41,897 nucleotides of DNA. Source: a virus. The translations under genes were made by a program, and so were the position numbers. The DNA lies in IMG/VR virus record IMGVR_UViG_3300043640_000065, positions 1-41,897 of that record; one strand, 5' to 3'. Positions 2,467 to 26,285 of the stretch are shown piece by piece; position 1 is the stretch's first letter, and each line of letters begins with the position of its first letter. The notes below the pieces were generated by a model. It was not told the DNA's origin. It did no database searches and was given only the letters and a program-made list of their open reading frames with translations.

Positions 2467-2581
2467 AGAAATACAAGATAAGCTTCGAGCATTGATAGAC
2501 TATCATGTGGTTAGAGCAGCGGATTACATAACACAAATTCACGCAATTGATACGATCATTGCAAAGAAGGTCGAGACATGA
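2432..2581 (+). CDS. Small ORF (49 aa), below the ORF-track cutoff
   Basis: ATG with AAGGA SD. Fills an otherwise non-coding gap. Its stop overlaps the next ATG (ATGA). Confidence 0.3.
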   Translation: MSQEERTVEELREIQDKLRALIDYHVVRAADYITQIHAIDTIIAKKVET

Positions 2582-2748
2582 AAAACAGAAACTACGGAGG
2601 CTTTAGCTGGGCACGCCTATTAGGAATCAGCGCAGCTAAAAGCAAAGTATCACGAAAAATCGGTATGCCTCTAACTAAGGGCGGACGACAAAGAAAAGCC
2701 GGAGCCGGCAGCATTTTAGCTATGCTCTTTACAATGTTTTTTGATTAA
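2578..2748 (+). CDS. Small ORF (56 aa), basic with hydrophobic C-terminus
   Basis: ATGA coupling to the previous small ORF. Translated by hand: MKNRNYGGFSWARLLGISAAKSKVSRKIG...ILAMLFTMFFD. Confidence 0.35.
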   Translation: MKNRNYGGFSWARLLGISAAKSKVSRKIGMPLTKGGRQRKAGAGSILAMLFTMFFD

Positions 2749-2773
2749 GGTACGCAGGTACAAAAGGTACAAA

Positions 2774-3016
2774 ATGGATATTGAAACGGTTGAATACTTG
2801 GTAAATATGGGAGCTGCTTTCCATAAAGTTGATCGACTGAACTTTGATTTACGCGAGCAACTAGAAAGAAACGACGGTACAGGTGATTATCTCGAACCGG
2901 AAGAATTGGCTTCCGATCCTGAAAGGGTAAAGAAGTTAATGAATTATCTGAAAGAGCATATTCGCAATGTTGATTGTGCGATTTATTGCATACGTCCATC
3001 CAAATACGATTTATAA
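2774..3016 (+). CDS. Hypothetical protein (80 aa)
   Basis: ATG 2774 with AAAGG SD; the track start at 2741 is TTG. Confidence 0.45.
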   Translation: MDIETVEYLVNMGAAFHKVDRLNFDLREQLERNDGTGDYLEPEELASDPERVKKLMNYLKEHIRNVDCAIYCIRPSKYDL

Positions 3017-3026
3017 GGGGAATAAA

Positions 3027-3629
3027 ATGTTTGATTTTGAAGAAGCTAACAAGATGCTGGAAAGCGAAGAAACCGAGATATGCCTACCATCAGGCAGTTT
3101 ACTACCTATTTCGGCTCAAAATGCCATAGATGAAATTAAGGGTAAGATCGACATTCAACCCCTTGTAAATCAAGCGGAAGGGTATCAGATTGCTAACGTT
3201 GAACAAGCAACGCAAGCCCTATCTATGGCGCTACAAGCTAGAAAGCTAGTTACGGCACTGATAGACAGCAAAAAGGAAATCACGAAGCCACAACTTGATT
3301 TTCAAAGAGCGGTTAACAAGCTAGTAGCTGACTACACGGAAAAACTTCAAGCCATTGAAAACGGATTGAAAGACAAGATTGAAACATGGATTGATGAAAG
3401 CACCGAGCAAGGCTTTACTTCCGGGCTTGATTCAATCCAAGTTCCTGACGGAAGCTTAAAGCGCGTGACTACATGGGAGTTTGACGTTGAGGATTCTAGC
3501 GAGATACCTTTTGAATATATGACACCTGATATCGAAGGAATTAACAAAGCGATAAAAGGGGGCGTAAGGCATATTCCGGGCGTGAAAATCTACACGAAAC
3601 AAGAAGTAAAATTAAGGGTGAAGAACTAG
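3027..3629 (+). CDS. Hypothetical coiled-coil protein (200 aa) in the recombination module
   Basis: ATG 3027 preceded by AAGGGG. Heptad-like central region. Function not assignable from sequence. Confidence 0.5.
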   Translation: MFDFEEANKMLESEETEICLPSGSLLPISAQNAIDEIKGKIDIQPLVNQAEGYQIANVEQATQALSMALQARKLVTALIDSKKEITKPQLDFQRAVNKLVADYTEKLQAIENGLKDKIETWIDESTEQGFTSGLDSIQVPDGSLKRVTTWEFDVEDSSEIPFEYMTPDIEGINKAIKGGVRHIPGVKIYTKQEVKLRVKN

Positions 3630-3637
3630 AATAATCA

Positions 3638-3667
3638 TTGATTGTTAATATTGCAATCGTGTATAAT
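3638..3667 (+). promoter_or_regulatory. Sigma70-like promoter P2 (TTGATT-18-TATAAT)
   Basis: Consensus -10 followed by TAGAC, as in P1 and P3. Lies upstream of the RecT-like gene. Confidence 0.5.
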
Positions 3668-3702
3668 TAGACTTTAGAGAAACCCAAAAACAAGGAAATA
3701 CT

Positions 3703-4641
3703 ATGAATCAAGTCCCGGCAATGCGTGAGAATTTCGCAGTACAACACACCAATAATTTCATGCCTTCGATGCAGGAATTAGAACAACTTGGCCGGCTATG
3801 CCACACACTAGCCCAAGCCCCGTTTTATGCAAAGCTTGGAGCCGGCGGAGTGCTTGCAATCTGGCTAACTGCTAGAGAGCTTAAGTTACCGCCTATGATG
3901 TGCCTTAACGGAGGTTTACATAACATTGAAGGAAAAGTATCCATGAGCGCTCAGCTTATGAATATGATGATTATCAATGCAGGGCATAATATTGAAGTCC
4001 TTTACTTAACCGATCAAGGTTGTGCAATCCGATTTACACGGGTTTACAAAACAGGAAAAACAAAGTCGGACGAATACGAATTCAATATGAAGGACGCACA
4101 CCGAGCTAAATATTTCGGTGAACAGGGGCCAAATGGCACAATGCTATCGAAGCCTAAAGCTAATTGGGTAATGTATCCGCGCGACATGTTCTTTGCTAGG
4201 GCTTTATCCGGAGGAGCTAAAAAGTTTCTTCCTGAAGTCATGATGAATTGCTACGTCTTCGGAGAAATTGAAGACGCGCAAGCCGAAGAAATTCAAGGAT
4301 CACATGAGTTCGTAAATAATATCGTGCCAACTGGTGAAGCTCCAAAAGCTCAAATTGAATTGCCACCAGTTCAACCGGAGCCACCAAAAGAACCTGTAAA
4401 GCCAGTGCCTACAGAGCAAGAGATCTGCGAGTTTAAAGAGAAATTCGGCATAGGAACCGAGTCACTTCATGAAGTTTACTTAGAGGCAATTTGCAAAAAG
4501 TCTAAGAAAAACAAAGATGAAATGATCGTTTGTGCTGCGATGAATGAAGTTGGATTCATTGACGCTTTTAATAAATGGGAATCAGGATTGAAGAAGAAGC
4601 AAGAAGGAAACGAGTCACCGGTCGGGTTAGCCGTTTCCTAA
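3703..4641 (+). CDS. recT: RecT-family single-strand annealing protein
   Basis: Central region (..SMSAQLMNMMI.., ..NWVMYPRDMFFARALSGGAKKFLPEV..GEIED) resembles the RecT core. Pro/Glu-rich linker and C-terminal extension. Confidence 0.65.
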   Translation: MNQVPAMRENFAVQHTNNFMPSMQELEQLGRLCHTLAQAPFYAKLGAGGVLAIWLTARELKLPPMMCLNGGLHNIEGKVSMSAQLMNMMIINAGHNIEVLYLTDQGCAIRFTRVYKTGKTKSDEYEFNMKDAHRAKYFGEQGPNGTMLSKPKANWVMYPRDMFFARALSGGAKKFLPEVMMNCYVFGEIEDAQAEEIQGSHEFVNNIVPTGEAPKAQIELPPVQPEPPKEPVKPVPTEQEICEFKEKFGIGTESLHEVYLEAICKKSKKNKDEMIVCAAMNEVGFIDAFNKWESGLKKKQEGNESPVGLAVS

Positions 4642-4675
4642 TGTAAAGCTGCTTTACATGTAAGACAATCTTACA
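4641..4675. terminator. Palindrome copy 2 (ATGTAAA-GCTGC-TTTACAT) plus an adjoining TGTAAG-ACAAT-CTTACA hairpin between convergent genes
   Basis: Two tandem hairpins fill the 38-bp gap between the recT stop (4639..4641) and the lipoprotein stop (4680..4682). Confidence 0.6.
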
Positions 4676-4679
4676 TTGC

Positions 4680-5024
4680 TTACCTTGGTTGAGCCGGGCC
4701 GTTCATTCCCTTCGGTGTGCCCACCGGAGGGATTCCACTCGGGCCGTCTGCCATAGATAATAAAGTATGTCCATTTAAAGAGCTATTAACTTTTGATAAT
4801 GGAACTACAGGAACTACGGGAGTAACCGGCGCAGGCGTCGGAGTAATTGAAAGAGAGGGGATAGGCGATCCATTTAAGGGAATGGTCGCAGTGACGCTAG
4901 GCTTGTCTTCGTTATCGACGACATCCGAAGCCGTTCCCTCTGTGTGAACCATTGAAATAGTGTAAGTGCAACCAGTCAAGCTAAGCATACTTAGCATTAA
5001 ACTGATTAATAAGCTCTTTTTCAT
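4680..5024 (-). CDS. Lipoprotein (114 aa), Pro/Thr/Val-rich
   Basis: Signal peptide with lipobox LSLTGC. AGAGGGG SD. Last gene of the late block. Confidence 0.7.
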   Translation of the reverse strand: MKKSLLISLMLSMLSLTGCTYTISMVHTEGTASDVVDNEDKPSVTATIPLNGSPIPSLSITPTPAPVTPVVPVVPLSKVNSSLNGHTLLSMADGPSGIPPVGTPKGMNGPAQPR

Positions 5025-5047: not shown

Positions 5048-5737
5048 TTAAATTGACGTTGTTTCCGGAGATTCCGGCTTTTTATCCAATAAAACACTAG
5101 TTATGCAACCGATATTTCCGGCGTGATTAAATTGAATCATCGGATCAATCCAAATTCTAGTGCCAGATTCACGCGCTCTACGGCAGAATGTATAATCTTC
5201 ACCCCAAAACTCGCCTTCCCAAATTTCGCAAAGAAAGAATGCAAAGCCGGGAGGAAGATCTTTAGCTTTCGGTGTAAATTTAAGATCAGGAAATTTATCG
5301 ATTATTCTTTCAAAAACACAACGTTTGATTAGCATAAAGCCAGCCGGGATATACTCCATTTCAAGCAATCCTTTTTCAGGATTCGTAACTATTTTTCCGT
5401 CTTCTTCTGTTTTTGGTCGAAAAGTAAAGGATTTATCAATGCGATTTGGATAAACACCACCGATGAAATCCTCATTCTTTTGAAGTAAGGCTAACACTGC
5501 TTGAGGGGGCCAACCCAAATCCGAGTCAAGGCAAAGCATATGCGTGCAATCCGATCTTAAGAAAGCATCAACTAATCTATTTCTCTCCGCTTCAAGCAAA
5601 GATCCAGAGGTGACAATTTGAAACTGTACACCAATTTGGTGCATAGAAAGCATTAAGGTTGTCTCGGCTAATGAGATAGCAAATGGAACGTGAACTTTAC
5701 CCTCGAAAGCTGGGGTTGCGATGAATATTTTAACCAT
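5048..5737 (-). CDS. GT-A fold (family 2-like) glycosyltransferase
   Basis: DxD-type motif CLDSDLGW and the GEDYTFCRRA segment. Start overlaps the fibre stop (TAATG). Confidence 0.6.
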   Translation of the reverse strand: MVKIFIATPAFEGKVHVPFAISLAETTLMLSMHQIGVQFQIVTSGSLLEAERNRLVDAFLRSDCTHMLCLDSDLGWPPQAVLALLQKNEDFIGGVYPNRIDKSFTFRPKTEEDGKIVTNPEKGLLEMEYIPAGFMLIKRCVFERIIDKFPDLKFTPKAKDLPPGFAFFLCEIWEGEFWGEDYTFCRRARESGTRIWIDPMIQFNHAGNIGCITSVLLDKKPESPETTSI

Positions 5738-7767
5738 TAGTTTAATGCCTTTATATAAAGTGATCTAAAAAAGTTTGTGGCTGCCTCTGTCGTGATTAGC
5801 AAGGCATTGTCAGTCGGAAGTTGAAATTGAGTGCTTCGATTGTAAGGGTAATCGTTTAACGAAGTTTGAAGGGATCCATTCCCTCCGGACTCAACAAATA
5901 ATCCTACACCGGTAGATGAAGCAAAGATTGTTGAAGTGGTAGCGCTAACCCTTGTGTACCACGTCACCCCTCCGTTTGATTGAATAGTTGCTCCTCCTGC
6001 TCCGGCTGCAATATAGAAATCGTTCGCATAACGAAGTGCATTCAAATTGCTCGTTGTCCCACTCGTTCTAGATGTCCAAGTAATCGCATCCGTCGAGGAA
6101 GCTAAAACACCTCCTGCACCTGCATAAATGTACAAAGTACCATAAGTCAAAGCGTTTATGTCACTCGTTGTCCCACTCGTTCTAGCTGCCCAAGTCACCC
6201 CGTCCGTTGAAGTAGATAAACCGCCTCCAACAGTTCCATAAACGAAGACAGTTCCATATCTCAACGCGTTAACGTTGCTTGTAGTACCGCTAGTTTGACC
6301 AGTCCAAGCTAAAGTATCGGGAGAAGTGGCAATTCTTCCGCCTGCCGTTCCATACACATAGGTGCTGTTTCCGTAAGCAGTTGAAAGGATTGTGCTTGTT
6401 GTTCCGCTATAACCTGTATTGGTCGTCCAAGTGACCGCATCCGTTGAAGTCAAAGTTGAATGCAAAACGGAAGCATGATAAAGCGTGCCATCATATACTA
6501 AACTTTGAATCGTTGAAGTAGTTCCGGAAGTGCTTAATGCCCATGTGATACCATCGGTTGAAGTTCCGATTTTACCTGCTGAGTCTCCGTAAACATGCAA
6601 AGAACCTGTCCAGATCAGAGAACAAATTGTACTTGTTGTATTGCTTGTTCGAGTAGTCCAAGTGACGCCATCCGTTGAGGTTTTAATTACTCCTGCGTTT
6701 TGACCTGTAACAAGTAAAGTTCCATTAAATACACCGCAATTTACGGTACCGGGAGTTCCTGCAACCAGATTCCAAGTCACTAAATCAGTCGAGCTTCTTG
6801 CACCGGCTCCAGTCCATACCCAATATTGACCAGCACCATAAAATACGCAATTCGTTGCATTTCCCGAGCCAATTCCTGTTACTCTTGATGTCCAAGTAAT
6901 TGCATCGGTCGAGGTTAGGATATTTCCTGCGTCTCCTGTGACTCCAGAAATAAAGAGCGAGTTAGTAAACGCTAAAGATCTTAAAGTGCTAGTTGTTCCT
7001 GTTGTTTGCGCTGTCCAAGTGACGCCGTCCGTTGAGGTTTGAATCGCTCCACCGTCAAAGCAAGCTGCAAATAACCCTGCTCCAAAAACTAACCCTCCGC
7101 ATGTAGCTGTTGAATTTAGGCCATTGTTTCTTGTCCTCCAAGTAATCGCATCCGTTGAGGAGACAAGACCTCCATTATTCGCAACCGCCCCAACAAAAAC
7201 GCCAGCACCAAAAGCCATCCAAGGCCCAAAAGTTCCTTGGTTTGGATTTGTATTTTGACCTATGGAAGGATTTTTTGTTTGCCATGTAACGGCGTCGGTT
7301 GAAGTTGCTAATGCTCCTAATGATCCTCCATAGATGAAATTACTACCTCCGAAAGTCAAAGACTGAATCGTTGCAGAAAATCCGGAAGTTTGAGTAGCCC
7401 AAGTAATCCCATCGGTTGAGCTTCTTAAGACTCCACCGACACCAGCTATTAAATGCTTTGAAGAACCAAATGTTGCTGCCAAAATGGTAGAGGTTGTACC
7501 GCTTGTTCTTGCAGTCCAATTGATACCACCTCCGTTAATCAATCCCATTCTTGAAAAAAGAACAGGATAAGCAGCCTGAGAAAGGATACTGCCATCGCAT
7601 TTTAGCCAAACACCGTTAAGGTAGGCGTCTCCATTCGCATTCGCAAAATAACTCAAAGCTCCAACCGGAATTTGGTCTACAATCCCTAAGTTCACTCTTG
7701 CTTCGGCTGCATCATCTGCACCCGTTCCGCCCTGCGATATAGGAATCGGCGTTTTAATAACTGACAT
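5737..7767 (-). CDS. Tail fibre / receptor-binding protein: GGTGA N-terminus, tail-collar motif, about 13 Asp-box (BNR-like) repeats
   Basis: QGGTGADDAAEARVNLG, then WLKCDGSILSQAAYPVLF (collar-like), then 13 repeats of (S/T)STD(G/A)(I/V)TW every 40-45 aa. Confidence 0.75.
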   Translation of the reverse strand: MSVIKTPIPISQGGTGADDAAEARVNLGIVDQIPVGALSYFANANGDAYLNGVWLKCDGSILSQAAYPVLFSRMGLINGGGINWTARTSGTTSTILAATFGSSKHLIAGVGGVLRSSTDGITWATQTSGFSATIQSLTFGGSNFIYGGSLGALATSTDAVTWQTKNPSIGQNTNPNQGTFGPWMAFGAGVFVGAVANNGGLVSSTDAITWRTRNNGLNSTATCGGLVFGAGLFAACFDGGAIQTSTDGVTWTAQTTGTTSTLRSLAFTNSLFISGVTGDAGNILTSTDAITWTSRVTGIGSGNATNCVFYGAGQYWVWTGAGARSSTDLVTWNLVAGTPGTVNCGVFNGTLLVTGQNAGVIKTSTDGVTWTTRTSNTTSTICSLIWTGSLHVYGDSAGKIGTSTDGITWALSTSGTTSTIQSLVYDGTLYHASVLHSTLTSTDAVTWTTNTGYSGTTSTILSTAYGNSTYVYGTAGGRIATSPDTLAWTGQTSGTTSNVNALRYGTVFVYGTVGGGLSTSTDGVTWAARTSGTTSDINALTYGTLYIYAGAGGVLASSTDAITWTSRTSGTTSNLNALRYANDFYIAAGAGGATIQSNGGVTWYTRVSATTSTIFASSTGVGLFVESGGNGSLQTSLNDYPYNRSTQFQLPTDNALLITTEAATNFFRSLYIKALN

Positions 7768-7776
7768 CTTGCCCCC

Positions 7777-10152
7777 TTACCTTGTCCAAAAGTTTGTGCC
7801 ATCAAAGCGGATTGTCCAACCTTGATAATTTCCATTGATCAAAAGTGAGGCTGCGTTATCAATTAACGCGCCACCTTCTGCGGTGATTGTAATATTGTTG
7901 ACCGAAGCGTTACCGCCTTGATCCTTAATTTCCCATGTCTGGCCGGCTGTTGCTCCCGTAGTCGGAAGGACAATGCTTCTAGGGGTTGCCGTGCTTGTAA
8001 CGCCTATGCCGTAATCAGTTATTAGGGCATTGTAGTCAATCGCTGTCGTGATAAATTTGACAATCTGAGCGCCGTTTAAAGTTGTAGGGCCGTTCACTAC
8101 AATTTCTGTGAAAGGAGAGCCACCACCACCGCCACTACCGCCAATATATTCAGTGATATAAACTAAACCGGGTGAACCATTTCCGCCGGCTCTTGCAGTT
8201 GTTACACCAAGATTATATGATCCACTACCACCACAACCATAACCAATACCATTAGAACCGGCAGAATTGACAGTGTCATTTTGTTTTACACCACCGCTAT
8301 ATCGGCTACCTCCACCAGCACCGCCATGACCCATTTGATCGCTTCCGGAAAAATAACCATCGCCACCATAAACACCGGGGAATCTAAGATCGCCACCGGT
8401 ACCACCACTTCCGCCAAGTCCTCCGCTATTTGAGGTTGCTCCTGCTGAAAAAGCTGCGCCAGATCCACCAATACCACCAAGGGCCGTAAGCAAAGCCCCG
8501 AAGGAGGTTGTTCCACCATTTCCACCGGGATTATTTCCCGAAACTGCTATTCCGCCTGCACCAATTGTAACTGCTTGGGAAGCTCCAATCGTAGCTGCAT
8601 CAAATACACCTAAAGCATATTCACCGCCACCGCCACCGCCGGCAGGGGCACTTTGCGAACTGCCTGTTGCTTCTGAGCCTCCGGCTGCTGCTCCACCGCC
8701 TACGTTTTCAACAACGCAATAAACCATTCCGGAAGTAGGGGTATAAGTTCCACTGGCTGTTAAAACTTGAACATTAACAGAGGTAAATCCTTCTCCTGTT
8801 CCTGATCCGCCTTTATTAGCATCCCAAATGCTTACGAAATCTTCTCCATTGTATCGGCTTAATCCGACTGCTTGATAAGCTTGATTTAGAACGTAGGTAG
8901 TCAATCCATCGATTAATTTTCCTGTCTGAACTTGAATCGTGATATTATTTACTGCTGCTTGACCGGCAACGTCCTTAATTACCCATAGCCTATCTCTTGT
9001 ACCGCCTGCTTGCATTGTTACAAGTATTGGCCCGGAAGTAGAATCAACCATCAAAACAAGGTCGCCATCTGTAGGCGTAACGTTTGTGCTAACATCTGTA
9101 TGGAAGTAAATGCAGCCTGCTTGTGCTGAAATTGTAGTCGCAGGTGTTGCAGCCGAGCAAAGGTTTGCACCAGATCCGGGAGTCAAATAGCAATTGACCA
9201 TGCAAGCTTGAGAAGTAGGGGTATCAACCGCGTCGCCTGAGCATGTGAATTCGCAATCATGAAATAAGTTACTTGCGCCAGTACCTTGAATACATGTAGG
9301 GCCACCACCTGCGCCGAACTGTGTATTATAGGCAAAAATTGATCCGTTATTATTTGTAATCACCCCGACATTACTGCAATCGTAAATTCTTAGATTAGCG
9401 GTGTTATCAAAGCCCATTCCTTGAGGAAAGGAACAGAAATTAAACGTAGCCATTCCGCCCGTCATATTGATTCCGGCAACTCCTACGCTTCCGTAGAATA
9501 TGCAATTAACAAACTGATTATAGTTAAAGTCCGAAGTTAATAAGTATCCCGTGCTTGCTGAATTATCTAACACACATTGGAACATATTAAATATATTAAT
9601 TGCTCCTGAGTTAGTAAATAAATCAAGTGCCGAATCAGGGTTTACGAAGTAAAGGCCTTGAGCGCGGAATAAGTTTGCTGCGCCTAAAGTGTGATTACCT
9701 AAAATTGTCGCGTATAGGGGAACGGCTCCGGGTTGTCCATACATAGCATCGCCACGAAGAAAAATACCGGGTGGAATAATTAAGTCTTCCGTGTAAGTTC
9801 CAAAGCGAATATAGATCATTTTCTGAACAGAAAGAGAAGCGCCATCGGTTACGGCAGCGTCAATAGCTTCTTGAATTGTTTGATAAGTGCCTTTAAGACC
9901 GGGAACAACCGAGGCATCGACTACGTAAGGAGTCCACCAAGTATTATTTGCATAGACCACGTCACCCGTTGAAGTGTCTACGTCCATTACCGGGGTATTG
10001 CTTGCACCGGCTTCTTGACCTACGAAAGCGAAGCTGTCTCCATTCAGAGGAGGGCCGGAATCGCCGGAAATTGTGATATTTCCCCCACCGCCTCCGCCTG
10101 ATCCGATTCTATCTAAGTTACCCGTGATAGGGTTATATGCCCATTCTGCCAT
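7777..10152 (-). CDS. Tail fibre/spike with beta-helix-like domain, duplicated W-IKD-G-A-NNITI module and a long Gly-rich region
   Basis: TIQEAIDAA..IYIRFGTYTE (pectate-lyase-like beta-helix start). Module repeated at about aa 388 and aa 735. Poly-Gly tracts. Confidence 0.65.
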   Translation of the reverse strand: MAEWAYNPITGNLDRIGSGGGGGGNITISGDSGPPLNGDSFAFVGQEAGASNTPVMDVDTSTGDVVYANNTWWTPYVVDASVVPGLKGTYQTIQEAIDAAVTDGASLSVQKMIYIRFGTYTEDLIIPPGIFLRGDAMYGQPGAVPLYATILGNHTLGAANLFRAQGLYFVNPDSALDLFTNSGAINIFNMFQCVLDNSASTGYLLTSDFNYNQFVNCIFYGSVGVAGINMTGGMATFNFCSFPQGMGFDNTANLRIYDCSNVGVITNNNGSIFAYNTQFGAGGGPTCIQGTGASNLFHDCEFTCSGDAVDTPTSQACMVNCYLTPGSGANLCSAATPATTISAQAGCIYFHTDVSTNVTPTDGDLVLMVDSTSGPILVTMQAGGTRDRLWVIKDVAGQAAVNNITIQVQTGKLIDGLTTYVLNQAYQAVGLSRYNGEDFVSIWDANKGGSGTGEGFTSVNVQVLTASGTYTPTSGMVYCVVENVGGGAAAGGSEATGSSQSAPAGGGGGGEYALGVFDAATIGASQAVTIGAGGIAVSGNNPGGNGGTTSFGALLTALGGIGGSGAAFSAGATSNSGGLGGSGGTGGDLRFPGVYGGDGYFSGSDQMGHGGAGGGSRYSGGVKQNDTVNSAGSNGIGYGCGGSGSYNLGVTTARAGGNGSPGLVYITEYIGGSGGGGGSPFTEIVVNGPTTLNGAQIVKFITTAIDYNALITDYGIGVTSTATPRSIVLPTTGATAGQTWEIKDQGGNASVNNITITAEGGALIDNAASLLINGNYQGWTIRFDGTNFWTR

Positions 10153-12762: not shown

Positions 12763-14748
12763 TTAAATGCTCACGTTAATTCGGCTTAGATCCCACACTG
12801 AAATTTCTGTCTCACCAATGCTTATGTCTGTGGAGACGTAAGACGGAGTAGTCGAAAGATTCAGAGTCCTTGCAAGTTGAACGGTAGCCGAAGCAATTCC
12901 CGGAACTGAGAAGCACACGGCTTGGACTCTTTGAATAATGACATCGATACCAATTCCTAAAGTGTCGCCGTAAGCTAAGATCGCTTGTGCGACTAGCTCT
13001 TGTCCGTTCGCTGGAAACGTTTCTTGAGGATTTAGCGTCAATGATACCAACACCCAAATATAAACCGGTGTAGCCCTTGTAAAATCGATTCCTTGAGGGT
13101 TTCCCTGACTATCGGTAATAACGACGTGCGTATTTCCAAAAGTCTGAATCCCGGCCGGCTTAAGCTGCCAGATTTTAAGGGCAACGTCTGCGTCTGTTCC
13201 ACCTTCGACAACTGCTTCAAAAGATTTAGGGGGACGTCCTCCGGATTCGCTATAAGTCGGTTGACTAGCTCCTCCTGAAACGTTGAAATCAATTTCAATC
13301 TCTTGGCCGTCATTCATTTCAATCGTTAGCTCTCTGTTTCCAGTGCCTCCAACCGAAACCGCTTTGATCTGAGGTTGAGCTAAAATAAGAGCTGCAAGAT
13401 CATTCATTACCTGTAAACTAGATGAAACGTAAGAGACAGAGCCGATATTTGAACCCTCTAAATCTACTTGAACGGTATTACCTGTAACGAAATCGATTGA
13501 AAACACGATAGAGATAGGATCTTGTGTCATTGTTACGTTTTCAAATACAGTAACCGAAGTGACTCCGGGAACTTCTTGAAGAAGCCTTGAACGTATTGCC
13601 TCAACGGTTGCAGCTCCTTGGCTATGCAAAGACTGAGCGCGCCTAATTCTTAGCTCCGCATCTGTTTCTTGATTCCTTCCCGTATTACCGGCTTGAGGAT
13701 TCGTTAAGCTTGTCCATCCTGCAATAGGTGTCACAATCTCGGTTAAGCTATTTGCCGGCGCTGCGATTGGCCCATATGTCTGAGCAAGGAAAGGAATAGG
13801 GGAGGCTGTTGAGGTAATTAGAAGATTCGTTCCTACCGTAATTGCATAAGGCAAGTTAGAGTTTCTAGCGGATACGGTGAAAGTATTTCCACTTGTCCAA
13901 CTACTTGAAGCAATCGTCGAGTTTGCGTCTATATTAGCTGAAAGATATTGCGCTACCGTATTGGCATTCGTATTGCTAAACACAACTGAAGCCGTAGGCG
14001 CTCCGCCTCCTGAAACGTTGGGAGAGCTGACAATAATTTGTTTTCCCAAAACGGGAACTAGTCTAACGCCATTCGTAATCGGGGTAGCGCTAAAAATTGA
14101 GTCCGGAAAGTTAGCTAAAAGAACGGCTGCAAGATTAGTTAAAGTTTGAGCGTTAGAAGTAACAAAAGGAACAGTAGGCGAATTAACTCCATTAATTCTA
14201 ACGGATATTGTATTACCTGAAACTAAATTTCCACTGAACATTATAGCAGGAATGCTATAGACGAATTGAATTCCACTAAGCAAAACCGTGTATTGTTGCG
14301 CTGTTGCTGCTGTTACTGAAATTGTATTCGCTAGAGCTGAACCATTCGAAATAATCGCGTTTGCTGTAGAAAAGAAAATCTCCGGAGAGTCTGAAAGTCT
14401 TGCTAAGCTTCCGGCTGGGATCAATGTTCCCGGTGTTCCCGTAGCAGCGCCGATAACCGAAGTCCTAAGCGCAGCCAATCGAGTAAGTCCGTTTAGCTGT
14501 ACGACGTTATCAAGTGAAATTCCCGAAGCTGAATTAGGGTACTGGCTTAAATAAACGTCTTGCAAGTTTTCCCAATCGTCTGCTAAAACTTTCGAGAAAA
14601 TTCCGATAAGCTGTCCCGTTACCGATTGCGCATCGAGATTTATATCGCCGAACTCTGCAATAAAAAGGTCTTCAAGCTCATCCTTGATATCAGGAAGTCG
14701 CATTGCATTGAATCCTTGTGGCGTTACGCCGAAAACGGGTGTTGTCAT
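12763..14748 (-). CDS. Baseplate J-like protein, enlarged (661 aa) by two inserted display modules
   Basis: J-like N- and C-terminal segments and position after the W-like gene. Inserted modules at about aa 150-255 and 412-500. Confidence 0.65.
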   Translation of the reverse strand: MTTPVFGVTPQGFNAMRLPDIKDELEDLFIAEFGDINLDAQSVTGQLIGIFSKVLADDWENLQDVYLSQYPNSASGISLDNVVQLNGLTRLAALRTSVIGAATGTPGTLIPAGSLARLSDSPEIFFSTANAIISNGSALANTISVTAATAQQYTVLLSGIQFVYSIPAIMFSGNLVSGNTISVRINGVNSPTVPFVTSNAQTLTNLAAVLLANFPDSIFSATPITNGVRLVPVLGKQIIVSSPNVSGGGAPTASVVFSNTNANTVAQYLSANIDANSTIASSSWTSGNTFTVSARNSNLPYAITVGTNLLITSTASPIPFLAQTYGPIAAPANSLTEIVTPIAGWTSLTNPQAGNTGRNQETDAELRIRRAQSLHSQGAATVEAIRSRLLQEVPGVTSVTVFENVTMTQDPISIVFSIDFVTGNTVQVDLEGSNIGSVSYVSSSLQVMNDLAALILAQPQIKAVSVGGTGNRELTIEMNDGQEIEIDFNVSGGASQPTYSESGGRPPKSFEAVVEGGTDADVALKIWQLKPAGIQTFGNTHVVITDSQGNPQGIDFTRATPVYIWVLVSLTLNPQETFPANGQELVAQAILAYGDTLGIGIDVIIQRVQAVCFSVPGIASATVQLARTLNLSTTPSYVSTDISIGETEISVWDLSRINVSI

Positions 14749-16975: not shown

Positions 16976-17616
16976 TATAAAGCTCCTAAGATGGCAGCTT
17001 GCGCCATAATTCTAGGTAATATGATTGCAGGAATCGGCACTAAATCTTGAATCCCTGAATCAATCCCGGTACTCGCTTGATCTTTCAATGTAGTTGCCGG
17101 GTCTGCCCCCATGAAAGGATATTTTGTAGTCTCTGCCACTTGATCCCGAGGTATAACGCTTGGAGGTCTGTTAAAAGGGCTATTCGTATTTAAATTTACC
17201 TGCACGGTAGTATCGATAAAAATCTTCTGAAGATCGATTACGAATGTTAAAGATTGGCCTGACTGTACGTTTCGAGGCACTTGCAAAGAAGTGATAACCA
17301 TATCGGTATATACTTTTATCCCGGTGACAACTGTAATCCTTTCCCTGCGGTTATGTATCTCTACAAGGGTATTGAAGGCATTTATAGACCTATTGAAAGG
17401 CGCTAAAAAAGATAAAGGGGTATCCGAAACAACGCCGGTAAGCTGTAAGGTGTCCGGCTCATTAATTATATGATCGGAAATGATCCGTCCGTCTTCGATA
17501 GGGTAGTTAGTGACCCTAGAATTATAGACGTGTTCTTCGGATAAGACAGCATCTAAAACCACGCTTGCAACGGCTGTACGGGCATATTTCTTTCCGAAAA
17601 GCAGTGATAAAACCAT
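16975..17616 (-). CDS. Tail/baseplate-associated hypothetical protein (213 aa)
   Basis: Immediately downstream of the tape measure, TAATG coupling. Assigned by position only. Confidence 0.45.
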   Translation of the reverse strand: MVLSLLFGKKYARTAVASVVLDAVLSEEHVYNSRVTNYPIEDGRIISDHIINEPDTLQLTGVVSDTPLSFLAPFNRSINAFNTLVEIHNRRERITVVTGIKVYTDMVITSLQVPRNVQSGQSLTFVIDLQKIFIDTTVQVNLNTNSPFNRPPSVIPRDQVAETTKYPFMGADPATTLKDQASTGIDSGIQDLVPIPAIILPRIMAQAAILGAL

Positions 17617-18743
17617 TACTCAACCACCGGATTATTATTTTGAATCTGATAAAATGTATTCATGATCGAGGAGTCAACCGCCTGTTGTACTTGGCTTGAA
17701 ATATATTCTGCTTGATCTTGAGTTGATCCGGGAGGTACTGAAATATCAATGTTGTTCGTTACGCTTGGCATTGATCCACCACCGGCAGGCGCTAAGAAAC
17801 CGTTGTACTGATACCCGGGCTTATTTTCAATATAGTCATTGATTCGGCTAAACGTGTTTTTATCTAAACCATTAAGAGCCGATTGACCTCCGAAGAAAGT
17901 ATTCTTAAAGAAGTCTGAAACATTGTTTAAGCCTGTTTTCTCAAAAATCGGATCTAGAAGTTTGCTAGCAGAATTTAAGTTTGACTTAACCCCTGAGAGG
18001 TTAAAGTCAAAAAGGTTTCTAGCTATGTTAGAAATAAGTGTGAGCTGTTCAACAAGGAATTGCAGAACCGGAAAAACGGTAGTGCTTATTGAGTAGGTGA
18101 ATTTAGTCCAAGCTTGAGTCAGATTATTGACAGACTCTTCGAATGCTTTTGCTTGTGGCAAAACATCCGGTTGCTTCTCAAGTTGTTCGTAGGCTTCTTT
18201 TACCGCATCTTTAAAGTCATCATACTTCAAGGAAAGATCGGAAATCTTCGCCCCTAGTTGCTCACCAAATAAAGCGGTTGAAATCCTGATCCTTTCTTGC
18301 TCATTTTCAATGCCTCGAATTGCTTCAATGTATTTATCAAACAATTCTTTAGGCCCTGTGTCACGGCTTATCTCAATCCCTAGTTGCCTTGCAATTTCGG
18401 GGAGTCGACCGAATCCTTGAGCAAATTCATTAAGATCTTTTTGAATGACAGCGAAAGCGCCGGCTAATTGCTCAGGTCTTATCCGGAACTTTTGGGCGAC
18501 CTCTTGCATGGCTCTTAATTCATTAAGGGAAATGCCGAGAGATCGCGCAAGCTCATCTGAATCGAGTAAAGCGCCTGCAATGTCACCGAAGAAATCTTTT
18601 ATCACCTTGAAGGCATAGGAAGCAGCCGTAGCAGCAATAGCAAAACGGGTTTTAAAGCCGGTGATTGCTCGATTGGTTTCATTGATAGCTTTCTTATCAG
18701 TTTGAAACCCTAATCTAATTAGCAGTTCTCTTACGATTGCCAT
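17616..18743 (-). CDS. Tape measure protein (short, 375 aa)
   Basis: Helical and Ala/Leu/Gln-rich. Follows the frameshifted chaperone pair. Confidence 0.65.
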   Translation of the reverse strand: MAIVRELLIRLGFQTDKKAINETNRAITGFKTRFAIAATAASYAFKVIKDFFGDIAGALLDSDELARSLGISLNELRAMQEVAQKFRIRPEQLAGAFAVIQKDLNEFAQGFGRLPEIARQLGIEISRDTGPKELFDKYIEAIRGIENEQERIRISTALFGEQLGAKISDLSLKYDDFKDAVKEAYEQLEKQPDVLPQAKAFEESVNNLTQAWTKFTYSISTTVFPVLQFLVEQLTLISNIARNLFDFNLSGVKSNLNSASKLLDPIFEKTGLNNVSDFFKNTFFGGQSALNGLDKNTFSRINDYIENKPGYQYNGFLAPAGGGSMPSVTNNIDISVPPGSTQDQAEYISSQVQQAVDSSIMNTFYQIQNNNPVVE

Positions 18744-19794: not shown

Positions 19795-21975
19795 TTAAAC
19801 TGATACTGTTCCTCTGATAACCACGGCATGAATCGCGCCCGAAAGCGTCGCATTAAACTTAACGTTTCGCAAGATTCTGTTTGCCTTATCAGCCGGCGGA
19901 ACATCAGCAGCTTTTGGAACTGTAGTACGAGGAGCAGGATCGGACGCAAGGAAATCATTTGACACCCCTAGGCTTAACGCTCTCTTTACCTCTGATTCAA
20001 TTACCGCAATACCTGCGTCGGTATATGGTACTTTCGGATTATTCACTAAGACAGAGAATACAAATTCTTGAATCCTAGAAGTCAACCAGTCAACACCTCG
20101 GATAACATCTATGTATTCGCCTTGTGCAACTGTGCCGTTTGCTGTAATTCCAACGCCTCCGACAAACTCATAAGTATTTGCTTTCTTAGCGAGAGCTGTA
20201 TTGCTTTGAGTCGTTGTAAGATTGCTGTATGAAATTCCGGCAAGCGTCTTGAATTTCCAAGTCTCTGAACCCGGCTCCAATGGAAGCACTCGACCGAACC
20301 ATGCAGCCTCTGGATAATCGAAGTCAGCGTCTTGGTGATACATCACGAATGTTCGAACGTAGCCAAGCTGATTAAAGAAGGCTGCGATCGACGCGGTATC
20401 TGTACCGGCAGGAACATTTATAATATTTGGATCACTTGAAGCAGTTCCAAATAATTTAATTCTTGCCTCTGTCCATGCTGCAATAGATTTTACAGTCGCT
20501 ACGTCTCTTGAAGTCGCAATCAGCGCATACCAAGTATTGTTAGCGTTGTTAATCGCTGTCAAGTCGTCTGCAACTGGATTCACTGCAACTAATGGTAAGA
20601 CAGTCAATCCTTTTTCAATGCTTACAACGTCCGGTTGAACACTCAAAGAGAAAGGAATTGTCAGATCATTTGCTATTAAGGTGATCGATCCATCTCCTTC
20701 ATTCGTAGCCGTAACCGGTACAAGCTGAGGAACTGCGTTAATTTCATCTGTTAAGGCTGTGGCTACTTCAAGGCCATTTTGAACCGTTACGAGGGTTGTA
20801 TAATCGTAATTGATTCCGTTGATAGTGATTCGATAAAGCTGATTCGGCTCTACCTGTGTAATCCTGACTTTAGCTTGATTCGGATTGATAATCGTTGAAG
20901 AAGTCTTAAGAGTCCAAGCCACGCCCGGGGTTTTATTAGTCAGGGTGAAAGTTCCGTCCATGTTGTCAGTTGCTGTAACCGGCAAGCCTGGCTGAGGGGG
21001 AGTGTCATTCACACTAGCTACTATATCGGCAGCGATAGAGGCAGCGGTAACGGCTTGCAATGGATTTGTAATCGTTGCAGTCGCTTGAGTTAAACCACCT
21101 GAAACGATATAGCTATTGACTACCGCCGTAGTATTATCCGGGCCTTCTACTGTAAGAGTTCTAAAACTTCCACCTGAAACCACTGCGCTATAAGTCGGGT
21201 GCGCTGCGATAATTGCGTTGGCAATATTTGTCATCGTCGTTTGAGTGTCAACGGAGAAGGCAAAGCCACCTTGTGCAATTGCTGCATCAGGTTGAGAAGC
21301 TCCACTGTTGGTTAAGATCGAATTCAAAACGTTGTTGCCGGCATTAAAGACGATCGTAATTTGTCTTGCTCCTGTAACAGTAGCGGAGCCGACGGCTGCG
21401 TTTCCTGAAATTGCAGTTGCAAGGTTAGCGATCGTTGTTGCTTGGTTTGTCGTAAAAGGAACCGACGCCATATTAGCGTTATTGATTCTAGGGACGATAT
21501 TATTTCCGGTAACGAAGTCAGAATCAAAGTCTACTATTGCTGTATTTACTCCGACTTGGTTTCCGTCAACTGTTACTAAAACTCTATTTCCTGTAACTAA
21601 GTTAGCATTAAGGTTAACAATGCTATATGTAGTCGTCGAGCTAGAGCTTGTAGTTATAATGTCGCCGTTAATATCTAAAATGTAATCTTCGCCAGTCATT
21701 GCCGTTTGAACGTCGATTGTGACGTTGTCGACTTGACGACGGCCGATCGCAATTTGAGGAGGTGAAATTTGCTGAGAAAAAATGTCTTGTGCTGCAATAT
21801 ATTCCGGGTCGGAAGGGGAGAAGTCTTCGGCGACTTCATCCATATCGCTATAAAATCGGATTAGATCCGCGAATCTAATGTTTGAGCCGAGGATCATCGG
21901 AATTCCGAAGCCGGCTTCTGTTACTGTCTGCGTCTGTCTAGTTATGACTACGTCGACGATATCACTTAAAGGCAT
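19795..21975 (-). CDS. Tail sheath protein with a roughly 365-aa insertion of repeated display modules
   Basis: N-terminus MPLSDIVDVVITRQT.. and C-terminal about 275 aa are sheath-like. Position upstream of the tube. GGAGGA SD. Confidence 0.7.
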   Translation of the reverse strand: MPLSDIVDVVITRQTQTVTEAGFGIPMILGSNIRFADLIRFYSDMDEVAEDFSPSDPEYIAAQDIFSQQISPPQIAIGRRQVDNVTIDVQTAMTGEDYILDINGDIITTSSSSTTTYSIVNLNANLVTGNRVLVTVDGNQVGVNTAIVDFDSDFVTGNNIVPRINNANMASVPFTTNQATTIANLATAISGNAAVGSATVTGARQITIVFNAGNNVLNSILTNSGASQPDAAIAQGGFAFSVDTQTTMTNIANAIIAAHPTYSAVVSGGSFRTLTVEGPDNTTAVVNSYIVSGGLTQATATITNPLQAVTAASIAADIVASVNDTPPQPGLPVTATDNMDGTFTLTNKTPGVAWTLKTSSTIINPNQAKVRITQVEPNQLYRITINGINYDYTTLVTVQNGLEVATALTDEINAVPQLVPVTATNEGDGSITLIANDLTIPFSLSVQPDVVSIEKGLTVLPLVAVNPVADDLTAINNANNTWYALIATSRDVATVKSIAAWTEARIKLFGTASSDPNIINVPAGTDTASIAAFFNQLGYVRTFVMYHQDADFDYPEAAWFGRVLPLEPGSETWKFKTLAGISYSNLTTTQSNTALAKKANTYEFVGGVGITANGTVAQGEYIDVIRGVDWLTSRIQEFVFSVLVNNPKVPYTDAGIAVIESEVKRALSLGVSNDFLASDPAPRTTVPKAADVPPADKANRILRNVKFNATLSGAIHAVVIRGTVSV

Positions 21976-25457: not shown

Positions 25458-26285
25458 TTAAGGTATGTTAAGTTCTAAAACAGCAATACCGCCTACAACT
25501 CCGTTACCTTCGCGCCAAATAGCTGAAGTTACAGGGATAAGAACAGCAGATCCACCGTCCGCATCGCCACGGAATGCGCCAAGCTGTGTGTTTAAGCCGT
25601 TAGGCGCAACACGCAAGTAAACTGGGCTATTCGAGGTAATGACTGTTTCAGGCACAACATAGATTCGACCTTGTGTAAGAGTCGGAGCAACTTCACCTTG
25701 AAAGTAAGGATTAGGCGCACCGCTTGACAATGCCAAGTTCGGCCCGGTGTATGGAAACCACGCATTCATCTTGTTGTAAATGGACTGAGTTACGCCGAAG
25801 AAAGTTCCGCTTTGGCTTGCTGTAGTAGTTACGGTAGCTTGTGAAGCACCACCGGTCACAGTAAAGACAGTTACGTTAGTTGCAGTTCCAACGTCTGAAA
25901 TAATTGTGATAGTACGGTTGCTTGCTCCGCCAACTGTAGCGCTTGCTACTGAAGGGATCGCAGCGATTGCGTTAGCAACTGCTTGCATAGTAAGCAAGTG
26001 AGAAGTTGCAAAAACAACCGGAGTAATCGCAACGCCGTTAACTGTCGCATTGACTGTATTACCTGTGATTAAGTCCGCAGAAAACGCGCTTGAAGCGGTG
26101 TCATTTCGCGGTAGCATAATCTTGTAATCAAGGTTAAAAGGCTTCATAACACCAACGGCAGCCGGAATATTCTCTAAGCACTGAGGCGATAGAGTATTCT
26201 TAAAACCGCAATCGGCAATCCTTCCGGGAATGCCAATCGGCATATCGAAAGGATAAGCATTCTGAAAATAAGCTGGAGCTGACAT
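25458..26285 (-). CDS. Head decoration/cement-like protein carrying one display module
   Basis: Lies between the scaffold and the capsid gene. aa 66-152 match the module found in the sheath and baseplate J. Confidence 0.5.
   Translation of the reverse strand: MSAPAYFQNAYPFDMPIGIPGRIADCGFKNTLSPQCLENIPAAVGVMKPFNLDYKIMLPRNDTASSAFSADLITGNTVNATVNGVAITPVVFATSHLLTMQAVANAIAAIPSVASATVGGASNRTITIISDVGTATNVTVFTVTGGASQATVTTTASQSGTFFGVTQSIYNKMNAWFPYTGPNLALSSGAPNPYFQGEVAPTLTQGRIYVVPETVITSNSPVYLRVAPNGLNTQLGAFRGDADGGSAVLIPVTSAIWREGNGVVGGIAVLELNIP

Follow-up and report, generated by a model that had tools for sequence, protein, structure and literature searches.

Our analysis of a viral DNA stretch of 41,897 nt (IMG/VR record IMGVR_UViG_3300043640_000065; hereafter, the window) reveals that residues 85–450 of its tail sheath protein, encoded at positions 20626–21723 of the minus strand, comprise four small domains: a D2 domain that is split, two copies of a small module nested one within the other, and a tandem second D2. 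The module occurs five times in this genome, twice in the sheath, twice in baseplate J and once in the capsid cement protein, and represents a family without cover in Pfam-A, NCBIfam or PHROGs that amounts to more than 1000 clusters at 50% identity. We place the probability of the anatomy and the evolutionary identity of the copies as described here, taken jointly and with function set aside, at roughly 0.7.

Domain layout of the tail sheath

The sheath protein matches PF11863 with 99.2 bits, above the Pfam gathering cut-off of 34.9, and phrog_205 ('tail sheath') with E = 1e-104. Among PDB sequences, gp76 of 9zdk_S aligns to residues 3–118 and 413–726 (E = 6.5e-73), and the N- and C-terminal core also matches the solved sheaths of Bas63, PhiTE, Phi92 and Pam3. 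The gene lies in the order terminator, sheath, tube, chaperone, its neighbours being a PF23961 terminator, a PF11681 PhiTE-type tube protein and a PF21822 chaperone.

The preliminary description had presented residues 85–450, whose placement in ORF 19795–21975 is accurate, as an insertion of about 365 aa built from a repeated module. This is right for residues 119–305, which are composed of the module, whereas the remainder consists of D2 copies, and the excess over module-free sheaths of 428 aa is only ~298 aa. Specifically, residues 85–118 align to residues 85–118 of these 428-aa sheaths, while residues 306–365 align with D2 of phages Bitten and EM as well as with D2 copy b. When residues 85–118 and 306–365 are spliced, the product aligns with D2 of the same two phages. 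D2 copy b aligns with D2 of relatives, phrog_205 positions 103–432 align to sheath residues 366–724, and module-free relatives have a single D2. The motif Y-I-ING--Y-Y, formerly taken for a second motif of the module, turns out to be the first beta-hairpin of D2, and this applies to both D2 copies.

In the sheath, the inner module is placed within the first hairpin of the outer module (Table 1). The spliced outer module (residues 119–144 and 240–305) matches positions 2–87 of a profile built from non-window sequences alone (the foreign-only profile) with 66.2 bits and E = 1e-22; its C-terminal part by itself matches positions 24–87 (E = 5.5e-13), and the inner module matches positions 1–86. 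The same succession of N-terminal part, full copy and C-terminal part is found in P0018, P0038, P0070 and the cement protein P0012.

Table 1. Positions of the host genes, the module copies and the D2-type domains in the window
Feature	Residues	Window positions	Strand	Remarks
Tail sheath gene, 726 aa		19795..21975	-	DUF3383 / E217_gp31 type (PF11863)
D2 copy a, N-terminal beta-hairpin	sheath 85-118	21622..21723	-	has DYILDINGDI
Outer module, N-terminal part	sheath 119-144	21544..21621	-	first hairpin strand; profile positions 2-22/25
Inner module and its two linker strands	sheath 145-239	21259..21543	-	profile match aa 149-234
Outer module, C-terminal part	sheath 240-305	21061..21258	-	strand, helix, three strands, GGLTQAT
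D2 copy a, C-terminal part	sheath 306-365	20881..21060	-	helix and three strands
D2 copy b, tandem second D2, complete	sheath 366-450	20626..20880	-	contains LYRITINGINYDY
Baseplate J / wedge protein 2 gene, 661 aa		12763..14748	-	PF04865
Module copy A	baseplate J 170-255	13984..14241	-	inside D2-type domain
D2-type domain split by module A	baseplate J 150-316	13801..14301	-	hairpin aa 146-167, remainder aa 254-309
Module copy B	baseplate J 415-500	13249..13506	-	clean insertion
Capsid cement gene, 275 aa		25458..26285	-	beta-tulip, E217 gp24 / Pam3 gp6 type (PF22758)
Module copy	cement 67-153	25827..26087	-	foreign-only profile positions 2-87

The AF2 model of sheath residues 115–308 has a pLDDT of 95.9 and a pTM of 0.86, with pLDDT above 95 across residues 145–239, and in this model each unit of the nested pair contains one helix of 13–15 residues and 5–6 strands. 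The full-length sheath predicted from single sequence reached a pLDDT of 31, and that model was discarded. The module would be a self-folding unit made of a hairpin, one helix and a three-stranded meander, with its two ends side by side in the fold; because these ends adjoin, it would tolerate insertion into loops, its own loops included. The structural check proposed earlier thus yields a confident fold for the sheath pair and weak similarity to solved structures: with the two-domain query, the best Foldseek matches in the PDB are the D2-bearing sheaths of PhiTE, A-1(L), Bas63 and Milano, at probabilities of 0.97–1.0 but with E-values of 8e-3 or worse and TM scores of 0.30–0.38. In BFVD, the top structural match (E = 4.8e-7) is a 773-aa protein, probably the sheath of the Rhizobium phage RHph_I42 group.

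The module copies form one family

The sheath, baseplate J and cement segments belong to one domain family, as the preliminary description had proposed. The four full copies, ~86 aa each, are pairwise 31–40% identical when aligned against each other, and their local alignment scores lie 9–22 SD above composition-preserving shuffles. The foreign-only profile recovers each of them, with E-values of 3e-18 for baseplate J copy A, 1.4e-27 for baseplate J copy B, 7.8e-33 for the cement copy and 1.6e-23 for the inner sheath copy. Furthermore, the signature motif first read from the window is recovered in a consensus drawn from 55 mainly foreign sequences (xFSxDFVxGNxIxxxxNG...VxFxT...TM...A..I...V.SA.V.G...R.ITI...VTGGASQPT). 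The most conserved residues occupy the terminal segments, the helix start and the region before strand 4, and conservation over 179 foreign copies makes no conserved pocket evident.

The refutation named in the preliminary description, that unrelated, low-complexity stretches rich in Thr, Ala, Val and Asn merely resemble each other in composition with no common fold, is excluded by these tests. T, A, V, N, S and G do abound in the segments, and HMMER bias is noticeable for some repeat matches, but the shuffles just described preserve composition, the foreign-only profile reaches E-values as low as 1e-33, and the AF2 pLDDT is 96. Moreover, N10, T33, G80 and Q83 are conserved in 93–98% of the 179 foreign copies, in register across 86 columns, with R58 conserved less strongly.

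In the host proteins, no family of Pfam-A, NCBIfam or PHROGs overlaps the module at E ≤ 0.1, isolated copies have no match in PHROGs, and in 129 foreign carriers the families found are those of the host proteins, with none over the module; the earlier failure to assign it to a named family is thereby borne out. A family definition would annotate blank stretches in many cement, sheath and baseplate proteins. An intein or other self-splicing element was considered and, judging by the sequence, rejected, given units of only 86 aa, the lack of an evident nucleophile/His-Asn splice-junction pattern and the conservation of the copies in mature proteins. No tRNA or Rfam element is involved at the module.

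Copies in the baseplate and the capsid

The ranges originally quoted for baseplate J and the cement protein are accurate and correspond to residues 150–255 and 412–500 of ORF 12763–14748 and to residues 66–152 of ORF 25458–26285. Baseplate J matches PF04865 with 47.7 bits (cut-off 21.1) and aligns in three blocks with PDB 9ndy_H, the wedge protein 2 of Bas63 (E = 6.6e-39), compared with which module A as well as module B is a clean insertion. Between aligned blocks, baseplate J has 135 residues (165–300) and Bas63 wedge protein 2 has 50 (162–212). Module A splits a D2-type domain of baseplate J at the hairpin position that is used in sheath D2. Specifically, the sheath-D2 profile matches spliced residues 136–167 and 258–325 with 32.7 bits over positions 4–82 of 84, and in a search over all 264 window ORFs it matches whole baseplate J with E = 3.7e-5. 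At module B, the alignment jumps from query residue 406 and target residue 317 to query residue 496 and target residue 316; since it resumes at target residue 316 after 317, Bas63 wedge protein 2 has no residues opposite module B.

The cement protein matches PF22758 with 44.1 bits (cut-off 27), and its gene sits immediately upstream of the one for the major capsid protein (PF09950 Major_capside, E = 6e-69). The PHROG match on the cement protein (residues 145–274) begins past the module, and the Pfam match (residues 123–273) overlaps the last 30 module residues only. A comparison of the cement protein with PDB sequences gave noise only and no direct match.

Distribution among phages and flagellins

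An exhaustive search with the module profile returned 1044 protein clusters at E ≤ 1e-3, of which 433 reach E ≤ 1e-10 (clusters counted at 50% identity). This search was used in place of a word-indexed one with the 4-copy profile, which gave 4 short fragments only. The host families assigned among 129 matches are Phage_cement (61), DUF3383 (15), XM1_gp53 (12), Phage_sheath_1 (7) and Baseplate_J (5), with a neck terminator, an E217 gp28 collar protein and a GH64 glucanase as further hosts. Among these 129 carriers there are thus at least eight host families, covering head, tail and baseplate proteins; the module is also present in minor capsid proteins and in two sheath families.

The module is also found in flagellins. 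P0037, a bacterial flagellin that has both Flagellin_N and Flagellin_C, contains 8 module copies and a neighbouring flagellin contains 1, in a locus of three flagellins that is the only flagellin-bearing locus among the 150 matches listed. A word-indexed follow-up with the flagellin repeats gave nothing at E ≤ 1e-5; words of low complexity had probably filled its list of candidates. If more such carriers are confirmed, the flagellins would connect two unrelated bacterial-surface polymers through their variable outer layers.

Uncultured phages commonly carry the module, whereas deposited genomes almost never do. By tblastn, 5 of 50,697 deposited phage records carry it; the nested sheath pair has no match in these 50,697 records, and the cement protein retrieves Rhizobium phage sheaths only. 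These sheaths, of the RHph_I42 group (773 aa; MN988540), are from the only deposited phage genomes found to have the module, and carry one full copy (residues 283–374) and one partial copy (positions 1–52, residues 139–199). They differ from the window sheath in that the copies are not nested, the sheath appears to be T4-type, judging from flanking sequence and other module-bearing sheaths, and the genome is 193 kb. The searches run found no module in the capsid and baseplate genes of this group.

Exchange, retention and variation

The module has moved over evolutionary time among cement, sheath, baseplate, minor capsid, neck and collar proteins. The cement copy of the window is 60% identical to a copy in a DUF3383 sheath (P0042), and the inner sheath copy shares 50–56% identity with copies in baseplate J and cement proteins of other origin, in a nearest-neighbour table that is indicative only, as host labels come from single-pass phmmer and half of the proteins are unlabelled. 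Labels from jackhmmer had drifted (51 'sheaths' against 15–19 by Pfam) and were replaced.

In 101 sheath orthologues (45–96% identity), all four extra domains are kept almost gap-free, with a mean column identity of 0.44–0.52 compared with 0.71 for the core. Two relatives (L006 and L008) have one copy in the cement protein, two in the sheath and two in baseplate J, as in the window. Sheath lengths in close relatives fall at 626–635, 719–746 and 817–849 aa, besides one protein each of 528 and 580 aa; the module family would explain length classes ~90–100 aa apart. In P0024 and P0105, modules are located at different sheath loops.

Recent duplication or gene conversion inside this genome is a very improbable origin of the five copies. 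In its favour, the starts of three copies show a weak DNA-level similarity, 63–71% over 41 nt. Against it, the window copies are mutually just 31–40% identical but are 51–87% identical to same-position copies of other phages, and the five-copy layout is kept in relatives whose sheaths are 70–80% identical.

Relationship to sheath D2, flagellin domains and Ig-like domains

The module is probably related, at a distance, to sheath D2, the domain exemplified by residues 81–184 of Bas63 gp13 and present also in Sf14, PhiTE, Milano, E217, XM1, Pa193 and A-1(L). Several sub-threshold signals, none of them significant alone, agree in suggesting this kinship. Searched against PDB sequences, an 8-sequence module profile finds nothing, and the sole match of the module profile is D2 of 9zdk_S (residues 97–169, E = 0.068). 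With hhalign, module–D2 comparisons give P-values of 2e-4 to 3e-3, probabilities of 11–50% and scores of 19–25, whereas 30 column-shuffled controls score 13.3 or less. The D2 profile matches module B of baseplate J with E = 7.8e-4 in a single comparison, and the best PDB match of a flagellin-repeat profile is D2 of Phi92 gp130 (E = 0.099). The two domains share the element order, namely a hairpin with an x-I-N-G turn, a helix and three strands; both take an insertion just past the first hairpin, and both would face outward, a location that for the module is deduced. In contrast to the module, D2 is without the conserved ends (DFVTGN ... GGASQPT) and is so far found in sheath and wedge proteins only, compared with at least eight host families for the module.

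The outer domains D2 and D3 of flagellin and FliD resemble the module in their outward, hairpin-out nested design on a helical polymer. Like Flagellin_IN (PF07196), relatives of the window module are located in the variable middle of flagellins (P0037 and its neighbour), a likeness that does not extend to the window proteins themselves. The module consensus aligns with PF07196 in register at the I-N-G strand and the helix, at 14.3 bits against a threshold of 22.7 and E = 0.048, amid noise, and the window sequences have no match to Flagellin_IN. Foldseek lists FliD D2–D3 and FliC D2/D3 with an rmsd of 14–15 Å, and canonical FliC and FliD in the PDB are unmatched by the module profile and by the flagellin-repeat profile. 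Conceivably, the module, the D2 of sheath and wedge proteins and the giant-flagellin repeats form one old, self-nesting superfamily that was traded between phage virions and bacterial flagella and coats phage surfaces in a flagellin-like manner, a proposal that we put forward tentatively and hold to be less probable than its negation. Such a coat on capsid, tail and baseplate could, for instance, stick to flagella or matrix polymers by like-with-like contacts. Its stronger form, in which homotypic binding to the outer domains of host flagellin is an adsorption step, is a long shot.

Accessory domains of phages are usually described as Ig-like sandwiches at protein ends. In structural proteins of phages such domains are represented by Big_2, I-set and FN3, reportedly described by Fraser et al. 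in 2006, and by T4 Hoc (see also PMC9230969 and PMC12609058), and they have been proposed to give weak carbohydrate adhesion. Like the module, these domains are small, promiscuous and non-essential-looking, occur in head, tail and baseplate proteins, and are exchanged between phages. They differ in being all-beta sandwiches, whereas each predicted module unit has a helix, and in being terminal or in tandem, whereas the module is internal and recursive in loops. Among Ig-family Pfam entries, only fn3_5 matches the module, with an E-value (0.028) in the noise range. Recursive loop insertion, together with presence on capsid, tail and baseplate of one small virion, is unlike the usual accessory domains.

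The sheath layout is also reminiscent of the multi-domain sheaths of T4 (gp18), phiKZ (gp29) and Ackermannviridae, in which extra domains lie between an N- plus C-terminal core and face off the tube (PMC9230969), as would be the case here. Those sheaths belong to genomes of more than 100 kb, and their extra domains are mostly Ig-like sandwiches (PMC9230969); the window phage, by contrast, combines a 41.8-kb genome with a core and four extra domains of another fold that recurs in cement and baseplate proteins. Sheaths of small phages normally consist of one or two domains (PMC9230969), and the present layout goes against this reported rule.

Position on the virion and possible function

It is reasonable to propose, by analogy with solved relatives, that the module decorates the surfaces of capsid, tail and baseplate. 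The D2 of Bas63, a domain that not all sheaths have, touches the retracted fibres (PMC12609058); additional sheath domains sit away from the tube (PMC9230969); and cement trimers occupy the capsid exterior at the threefold axes (PMC9942802). Judging from these host-domain sites, the copies would project outward. A virion would bear ~420 capsid copies if it is T=7 like Pam3, and each subunit of the sheath and of the wedge would add two more.

For the function of the module, we tentatively put first, by analogy with proposals for Ig-like domains and Hoc and at somewhat less than even odds, a passive surface decoration that mediates weak multivalent adhesion to polysaccharide-rich surfaces such as the host envelope or matrix. 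The conserved base would then be the scaffold, and two variable loops, at presumed positions, would be the contact sites. The contact of Bas63 D2 with the phage's own fibres, on the other hand, speaks for docking or a structural task rather than for adhesion.

In a structural role, modules that are neighbours on successive rings of the sheath, on cement trimers and on wedges would touch each other or D2 and stiffen the particle, resembling the paired outer domains of flagellin that make an outer layer and the extra sheath domains proposed to cement the tail. The modules are almost free of indels in the 101 orthologues, a stabilising role of additional sheath domains is discussed by Evseev et al. 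(PMC9230969), and the capsid host is itself a cement protein. As counted for bracing, the hosts are homo-oligomeric polymers only (capsid lattice, sheath, wedge, flagellin), but one copy set lies in a soluble glucanase. Furthermore, the extra domains evolve faster than the core, and copy number varies freely in close relatives while the sheath loops used differ in P0024 and P0105, a variability that fits poorly with a precise lattice contact. We regard bracing as doubtful and favour adhesion over it.

Docking is an unlikely role. According to this reading, D2 and the modules would hold the phage's own tail fibres folded on the sheath and baseplate until infection, and downstream of its baseplate genes the window does encode fibre-like proteins, 676 and 791 aa long. 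The module is, however, also present on capsid cement, minor capsid proteins, flagellin and glucanase, where fibre docking would make no sense, which argues against it. Just as unlikely is that the module is a neutral passenger, easily inserted and harmless but of no benefit. Its high promiscuity, its variable copy number and the lack of an evident conserved pocket would fit a passenger, but ~1.3 kb (3%) of the 41.8-kb genome is intact in orthologues down to 45% identity, almost gap-free and with the fold signature preserved, in a phage of a size at which additional sheath domains are uncommon (PMC9230969).

The compact fold, the apparent proximity of its ends and the tolerance of nesting make the module a candidate scaffold for peptide display on phage surfaces.

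A single domain recurs in three virion proteins

Aligned against each other, as the preliminary description had proposed, the four full module copies, of about 86 aa each (see table), share 31–40% identity without large gaps, and their local alignment scores lie 9–22 standard deviations above those of composition-keeping shuffles. As a profile of the window's own copies would be circular, the profile was rebuilt from 181 copies, all from other proteins (foreign-only profile). It matches the four window copies with E-values of 3e-18 to 8e-33, and a further, incomplete-looking sheath copy (aa 238–301) with an E-value of 5.5e-13, and nothing beyond these among the window's 264 six-frame ORFs. These E-values exclude a low-complexity origin of the repeat, so the segments are not unrelated stretches of similar composition, and the central idea of the preliminary description, one fold in sheath, baseplate J and cement protein, is upheld. 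Its sheath coordinates were exact, corresponding to aa 85–450.

Residues N10, T33, G80 and Q83 of the module are near-invariant (93–98%), followed by R58 (71%). They are located in both terminal segments, at the helix start and directly ahead of strand 4, and the most variable loops are at profile positions 44–46 and 64–71. This conservation pattern would suit a rigid plug in which both ends come together at the site of insertion and the variable loops lie away from it.

Module copies, D2 domains and related features of the window
Feature	Window position	Residues	Remark	Nearest same-position copy (identity)
Large ORF downstream of baseplate genes	5737–7767	676 aa	No PHROG match	
Large ORF downstream of baseplate genes	7777–10152	791 aa	Tail-fibre families matched only at aa 333–673	
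D2-type domain of wedge protein	13801–14301	Baseplate J aa 150–316	Matched over its full length by the sheath-D2 profile after removal of module A	
Full module copy (A)		Baseplate J aa 170–255		P0030 and P0021 (51–55%, both baseplate J copies)
Full module copy (B)		Baseplate J aa 415–500		P0030 and P0021 (51–55%, both baseplate J copies)
Tape-measure-like protein	17616–18743	375 aa	Only 375 aa	
Tail sheath ORF	19795–21975 (minus)	726 aa		
D2, split copy		Sheath aa 85–118 + 306–365	First part contains DYILDINGDI	
Full module copy		Sheath aa 149–234		P0018 (58%)
D2, complete copy		Sheath aa 366–450	Contains LYRITINGINYDY	
Full module copy		Cement protein aa 67–153		P0016 (87%)

The sheath carries modules nested in a duplicated D2

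The nearest cultured and solved sheath relatives are Pakpunavirus-type sheaths, those of phages EM and Bitten, and gp76 (PDB 9zdk_S), all of 428 aa, which align to aa 1–118 and about aa 306–365/413–726 of the window sheath. Their aa 85–170 form a small outward domain, named D2 in the Bas63 structure paper and described there as 'not universally conserved among myophages' (PMC12609058). The window sheath has two copies of D2, one complete and one split. Both instances of a motif previously assigned to the module as its second signature fall in these copies, and the motif is therefore the D2 hairpin.

The stretch that separates the two parts of the split D2 (aa 119–305) matches the module profile as an N-terminal piece (positions 2–25), a full copy, and a C-terminal piece (24–87). 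The homologues P0018, P0038 and P0070 show this pattern too, as does P0012, a cement protein. When aa 145–239 are removed in silico and aa 119–144 joined to 240–305, the spliced outer module matches the foreign-only profile end to end (positions 2–87; 66 bits, E 1e-22), the inner module scoring 83 bits in the same comparison. The three-part pattern and the end-to-end match indicate that the region is a three-level nest, D2 > module > module, followed by a tandem D2. An AlphaFold2 model of aa 115–308, computed from an alignment of 8 nested-pair homologues and 47 single copies, has a mean pLDDT of 95.9 and a pTM of 0.86, and each modelled unit comprises a hairpin, one helix of 13–15 residues, and a strand meander. 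An insertion of about 365 aa built from one module had been proposed; the inserted excess is real, but it amounts to 298 aa over module-free relatives, and the architecture is a different one, of nested plug-in domains within a native, duplicated D2. Small phages are reported to have one- or two-domain sheaths (PMC9230969); this phage, at 41.8 kb, departs from that rule, its sheath consisting of a core and four additional domains.

Insertions in baseplate J and the cement protein

Set against Bas63 wedge protein 2 (PDB 9ndy_H, 489 aa), module B is cleanly inserted, the alignment skipping from query residue 406 to 496 with nothing missing from the target, and module A explains about 85 additional residues between aligned blocks (query 165–300, target 162–212). 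A profile built solely from sheath D2 sequences matches baseplate J at aa 146–167 (positions 4–25) and aa 254–309 (positions 27–82), with an E-value of 3.7e-5 for the whole protein in a search across all window ORFs. Once spliced, the region gives an end-to-end D2 match of 32.7 bits, so the wedge protein also carries a D2-type domain, which module A splits after its first hairpin, as in the sheath. Sheath and wedge thus have a second small domain in common besides the module. The PHROG family match of the cement protein (PF22758, beta-tulip type) covers aa 145–274 and starts only at the module's end, and the Pfam match (aa 123–273) overlaps the module by only its last 30 residues.

The module is probably a distant relative of D2

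At E<10, the module profile matches a single PDB sequence, in the D2 domain of 9zdk_S (aa 97–169, E 0.068). For a profile of the flagellin repeats, the best match is likewise a D2, that of Phi92 gp130 (E 0.099). In hhalign, module and D2 align in register across hairpin, helix and two strands (P 2e-4 to 3e-3), with scores of 19–25 versus at most 13.3 for 30 column-shuffled controls, and the D2 profile also touches module B of baseplate J. The Foldseek comparison suggested at the outset places D2-bearing sheaths (PhiTE, A-1(L), Bas63, Milano, 7-7-1) on top for the AlphaFold2 model, followed by the D2–D3 domains of FliD and FliC, but every PDB match is weak (E 8e-3 or worse, TM 0.3–0.38). Since several weak signals agree on D2, a distant relation to it is probable. 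A relation to flagellin outer domains is possible: the module consensus aligns in register with Pfam Flagellin_IN below threshold (E 0.048).

The copies are retained in an uncultured clade of small myophages

The first and last 127 bases of the window (1–127 and 41771–41897) are an exact direct repeat; the window is therefore a complete, closed small myophage genome of 41,770 bp, circular or terminally redundant. The sequence was assembled from a metagenome (Logan SRR35197076). No tRNA genes were found in the whole window, and no Rfam family reaches its gathering threshold there. The structural genes, of the E217/Pam3 'minimal myophage' type, form one block on the minus strand at about 5 to 32 kb. 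Their order is small terminase, large terminase, portal, Mu-F-like head protein, DUF2213 protein, cement protein, major capsid protein, neck proteins, terminator, sheath, PhiTE-type tube, chaperone, tape measure, hub proteins, sheath initiator, baseplate J, and fibre-like proteins. The length of the tape measure predicts a short tail, which we estimate at roughly 55–60 nm at 1.5 Å per residue. In a related contig (GCA_034680565.1; 6510–8976), a cassette of five small reverse-strand genes, among them a DUF2442/DUF4160 pair, lies between the head-completion and tail-terminator genes; it is missing from the window.

The sheath is only about 34–41% identical to those of the nearest deposited phages, placing the phage in an uncultured clade with ~40-kb genomes that is well represented in metagenomes. 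Relatives with 70–80% identical sheaths keep one module in the cement protein, two nested in the sheath, and two in baseplate J. Each window copy is closest to the same-position copy in related phages, which suggests that the five copies are old in this lineage. The module nonetheless appears to have moved repeatedly among host proteins: the next-nearest relatives belong to other host families, the cement copy sharing 60% identity with a DUF3383-sheath copy and the sheath copy 50–56% with baseplate J and cement-protein copies. Among 119 listed sheath relatives from ~40-kb contigs (P0154–P0272), most are 719–746 aa long, and smaller classes of 626–635 and 817–849 aa correspond to one module fewer or more. 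In the homologues P0024 and P0105, modules occupy other D2 loops, with extras after the D2 helix, not after the hairpin. The length classes and these alternative sites indicate gain and loss of modules at several loops. In 101 full-length orthologues, hardly any gaps interrupt the four extra domains, which are more variable than the core, with a mean column identity of 0.44–0.52 versus 0.71; that the modules are neutral is improbable.

Predicted location and function

In solved relatives, D2 and further extra sheath domains point away from the tube (PMC9230969; PMC12609058), and the cement trimers are on the outside of the capsid (140 of them in T=7 Pam3). By analogy, the modules, whose anatomy, nesting, spread and clade retention are established here, should project outward in hundreds of copies on capsid, tail and baseplate alike. 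We favour, at a probability of about 0.4, weak multivalent adhesion to polysaccharide-rich surfaces, on the model proposed for Ig-like domains and Hoc. Ranked after adhesion, bracing of neighbouring subunits by the modules is rather unlikely. In Bas63, D2 contacts retracted fibres (PMC12609058); docking of fibres by the modules is, in our estimate, a long shot. The 676-aa and 791-aa ORF products are probably receptor-binding proteins, and a profile search found no module in either.

The module is widespread and extends to a bacterial flagellin

No model in Pfam, PHROG or NCBIfam covers the module. Searched exhaustively with an HMM, 1.84 billion cluster representatives yielded 1044 matching proteins at E<=1e-3, of which 433 reach E<=1e-10. 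In a tally of 129 of the best 150 matches, the carriers are Phage_cement (61), DUF3383 sheath (15), XM1_gp53 minor capsid (12), T4-type sheath (Phage_sheath_1; 7) and Baseplate_J (5, with about 12 more left out of the scan for size), and one each of neck terminator, E217 gp28 collar and GH64 glucanase. The module is thus a variant within a known category, that of promiscuous accessory domains in phage structural proteins. Its family lies outside all libraries searched, it is self-nesting, and its presence in a bacterial flagellin is unexpected.

A tblastn search of 50,697 deposited phage genomes, with the window cement protein as query, recovered the module from five Rhizobium phages only, all of the RHph_I42 group and in each case in the 773-aa sheath. 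RHph_I42 (MN988540), a cultured phage with a 193-kb genome, has one full module at aa 283–374 of this sheath (2152–4473 of locus L003), and aa 139–199 match only the profile's first part (positions 1–52). A protein of 773 aa also heads the BFVD structural matches.

Of three very long carriers that were scanned individually, P0119 (3093 aa) has a Peptidase_S74 fibre chaperone domain at its end, P0028 (1570 aa) matches no Pfam family, and P0037 (1392 aa) is a bacterial flagellin, in which Flagellin_N and Flagellin_C exceed the cut-off and eight tandem module copies occupy the variable middle. Its locus (695–4873 and 5946–7973 of the bacterial metagenome contig L009) contains three tandem flagellin genes, and the 675-aa flagellin encoded there has one module copy. 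The GH64 beta-1,3-glucanase (982 aa; 6001–8949 of contig L010), the sole enzyme among the carriers found, has three module copies behind its catalytic domain and lies in a bacterial-looking neighbourhood.
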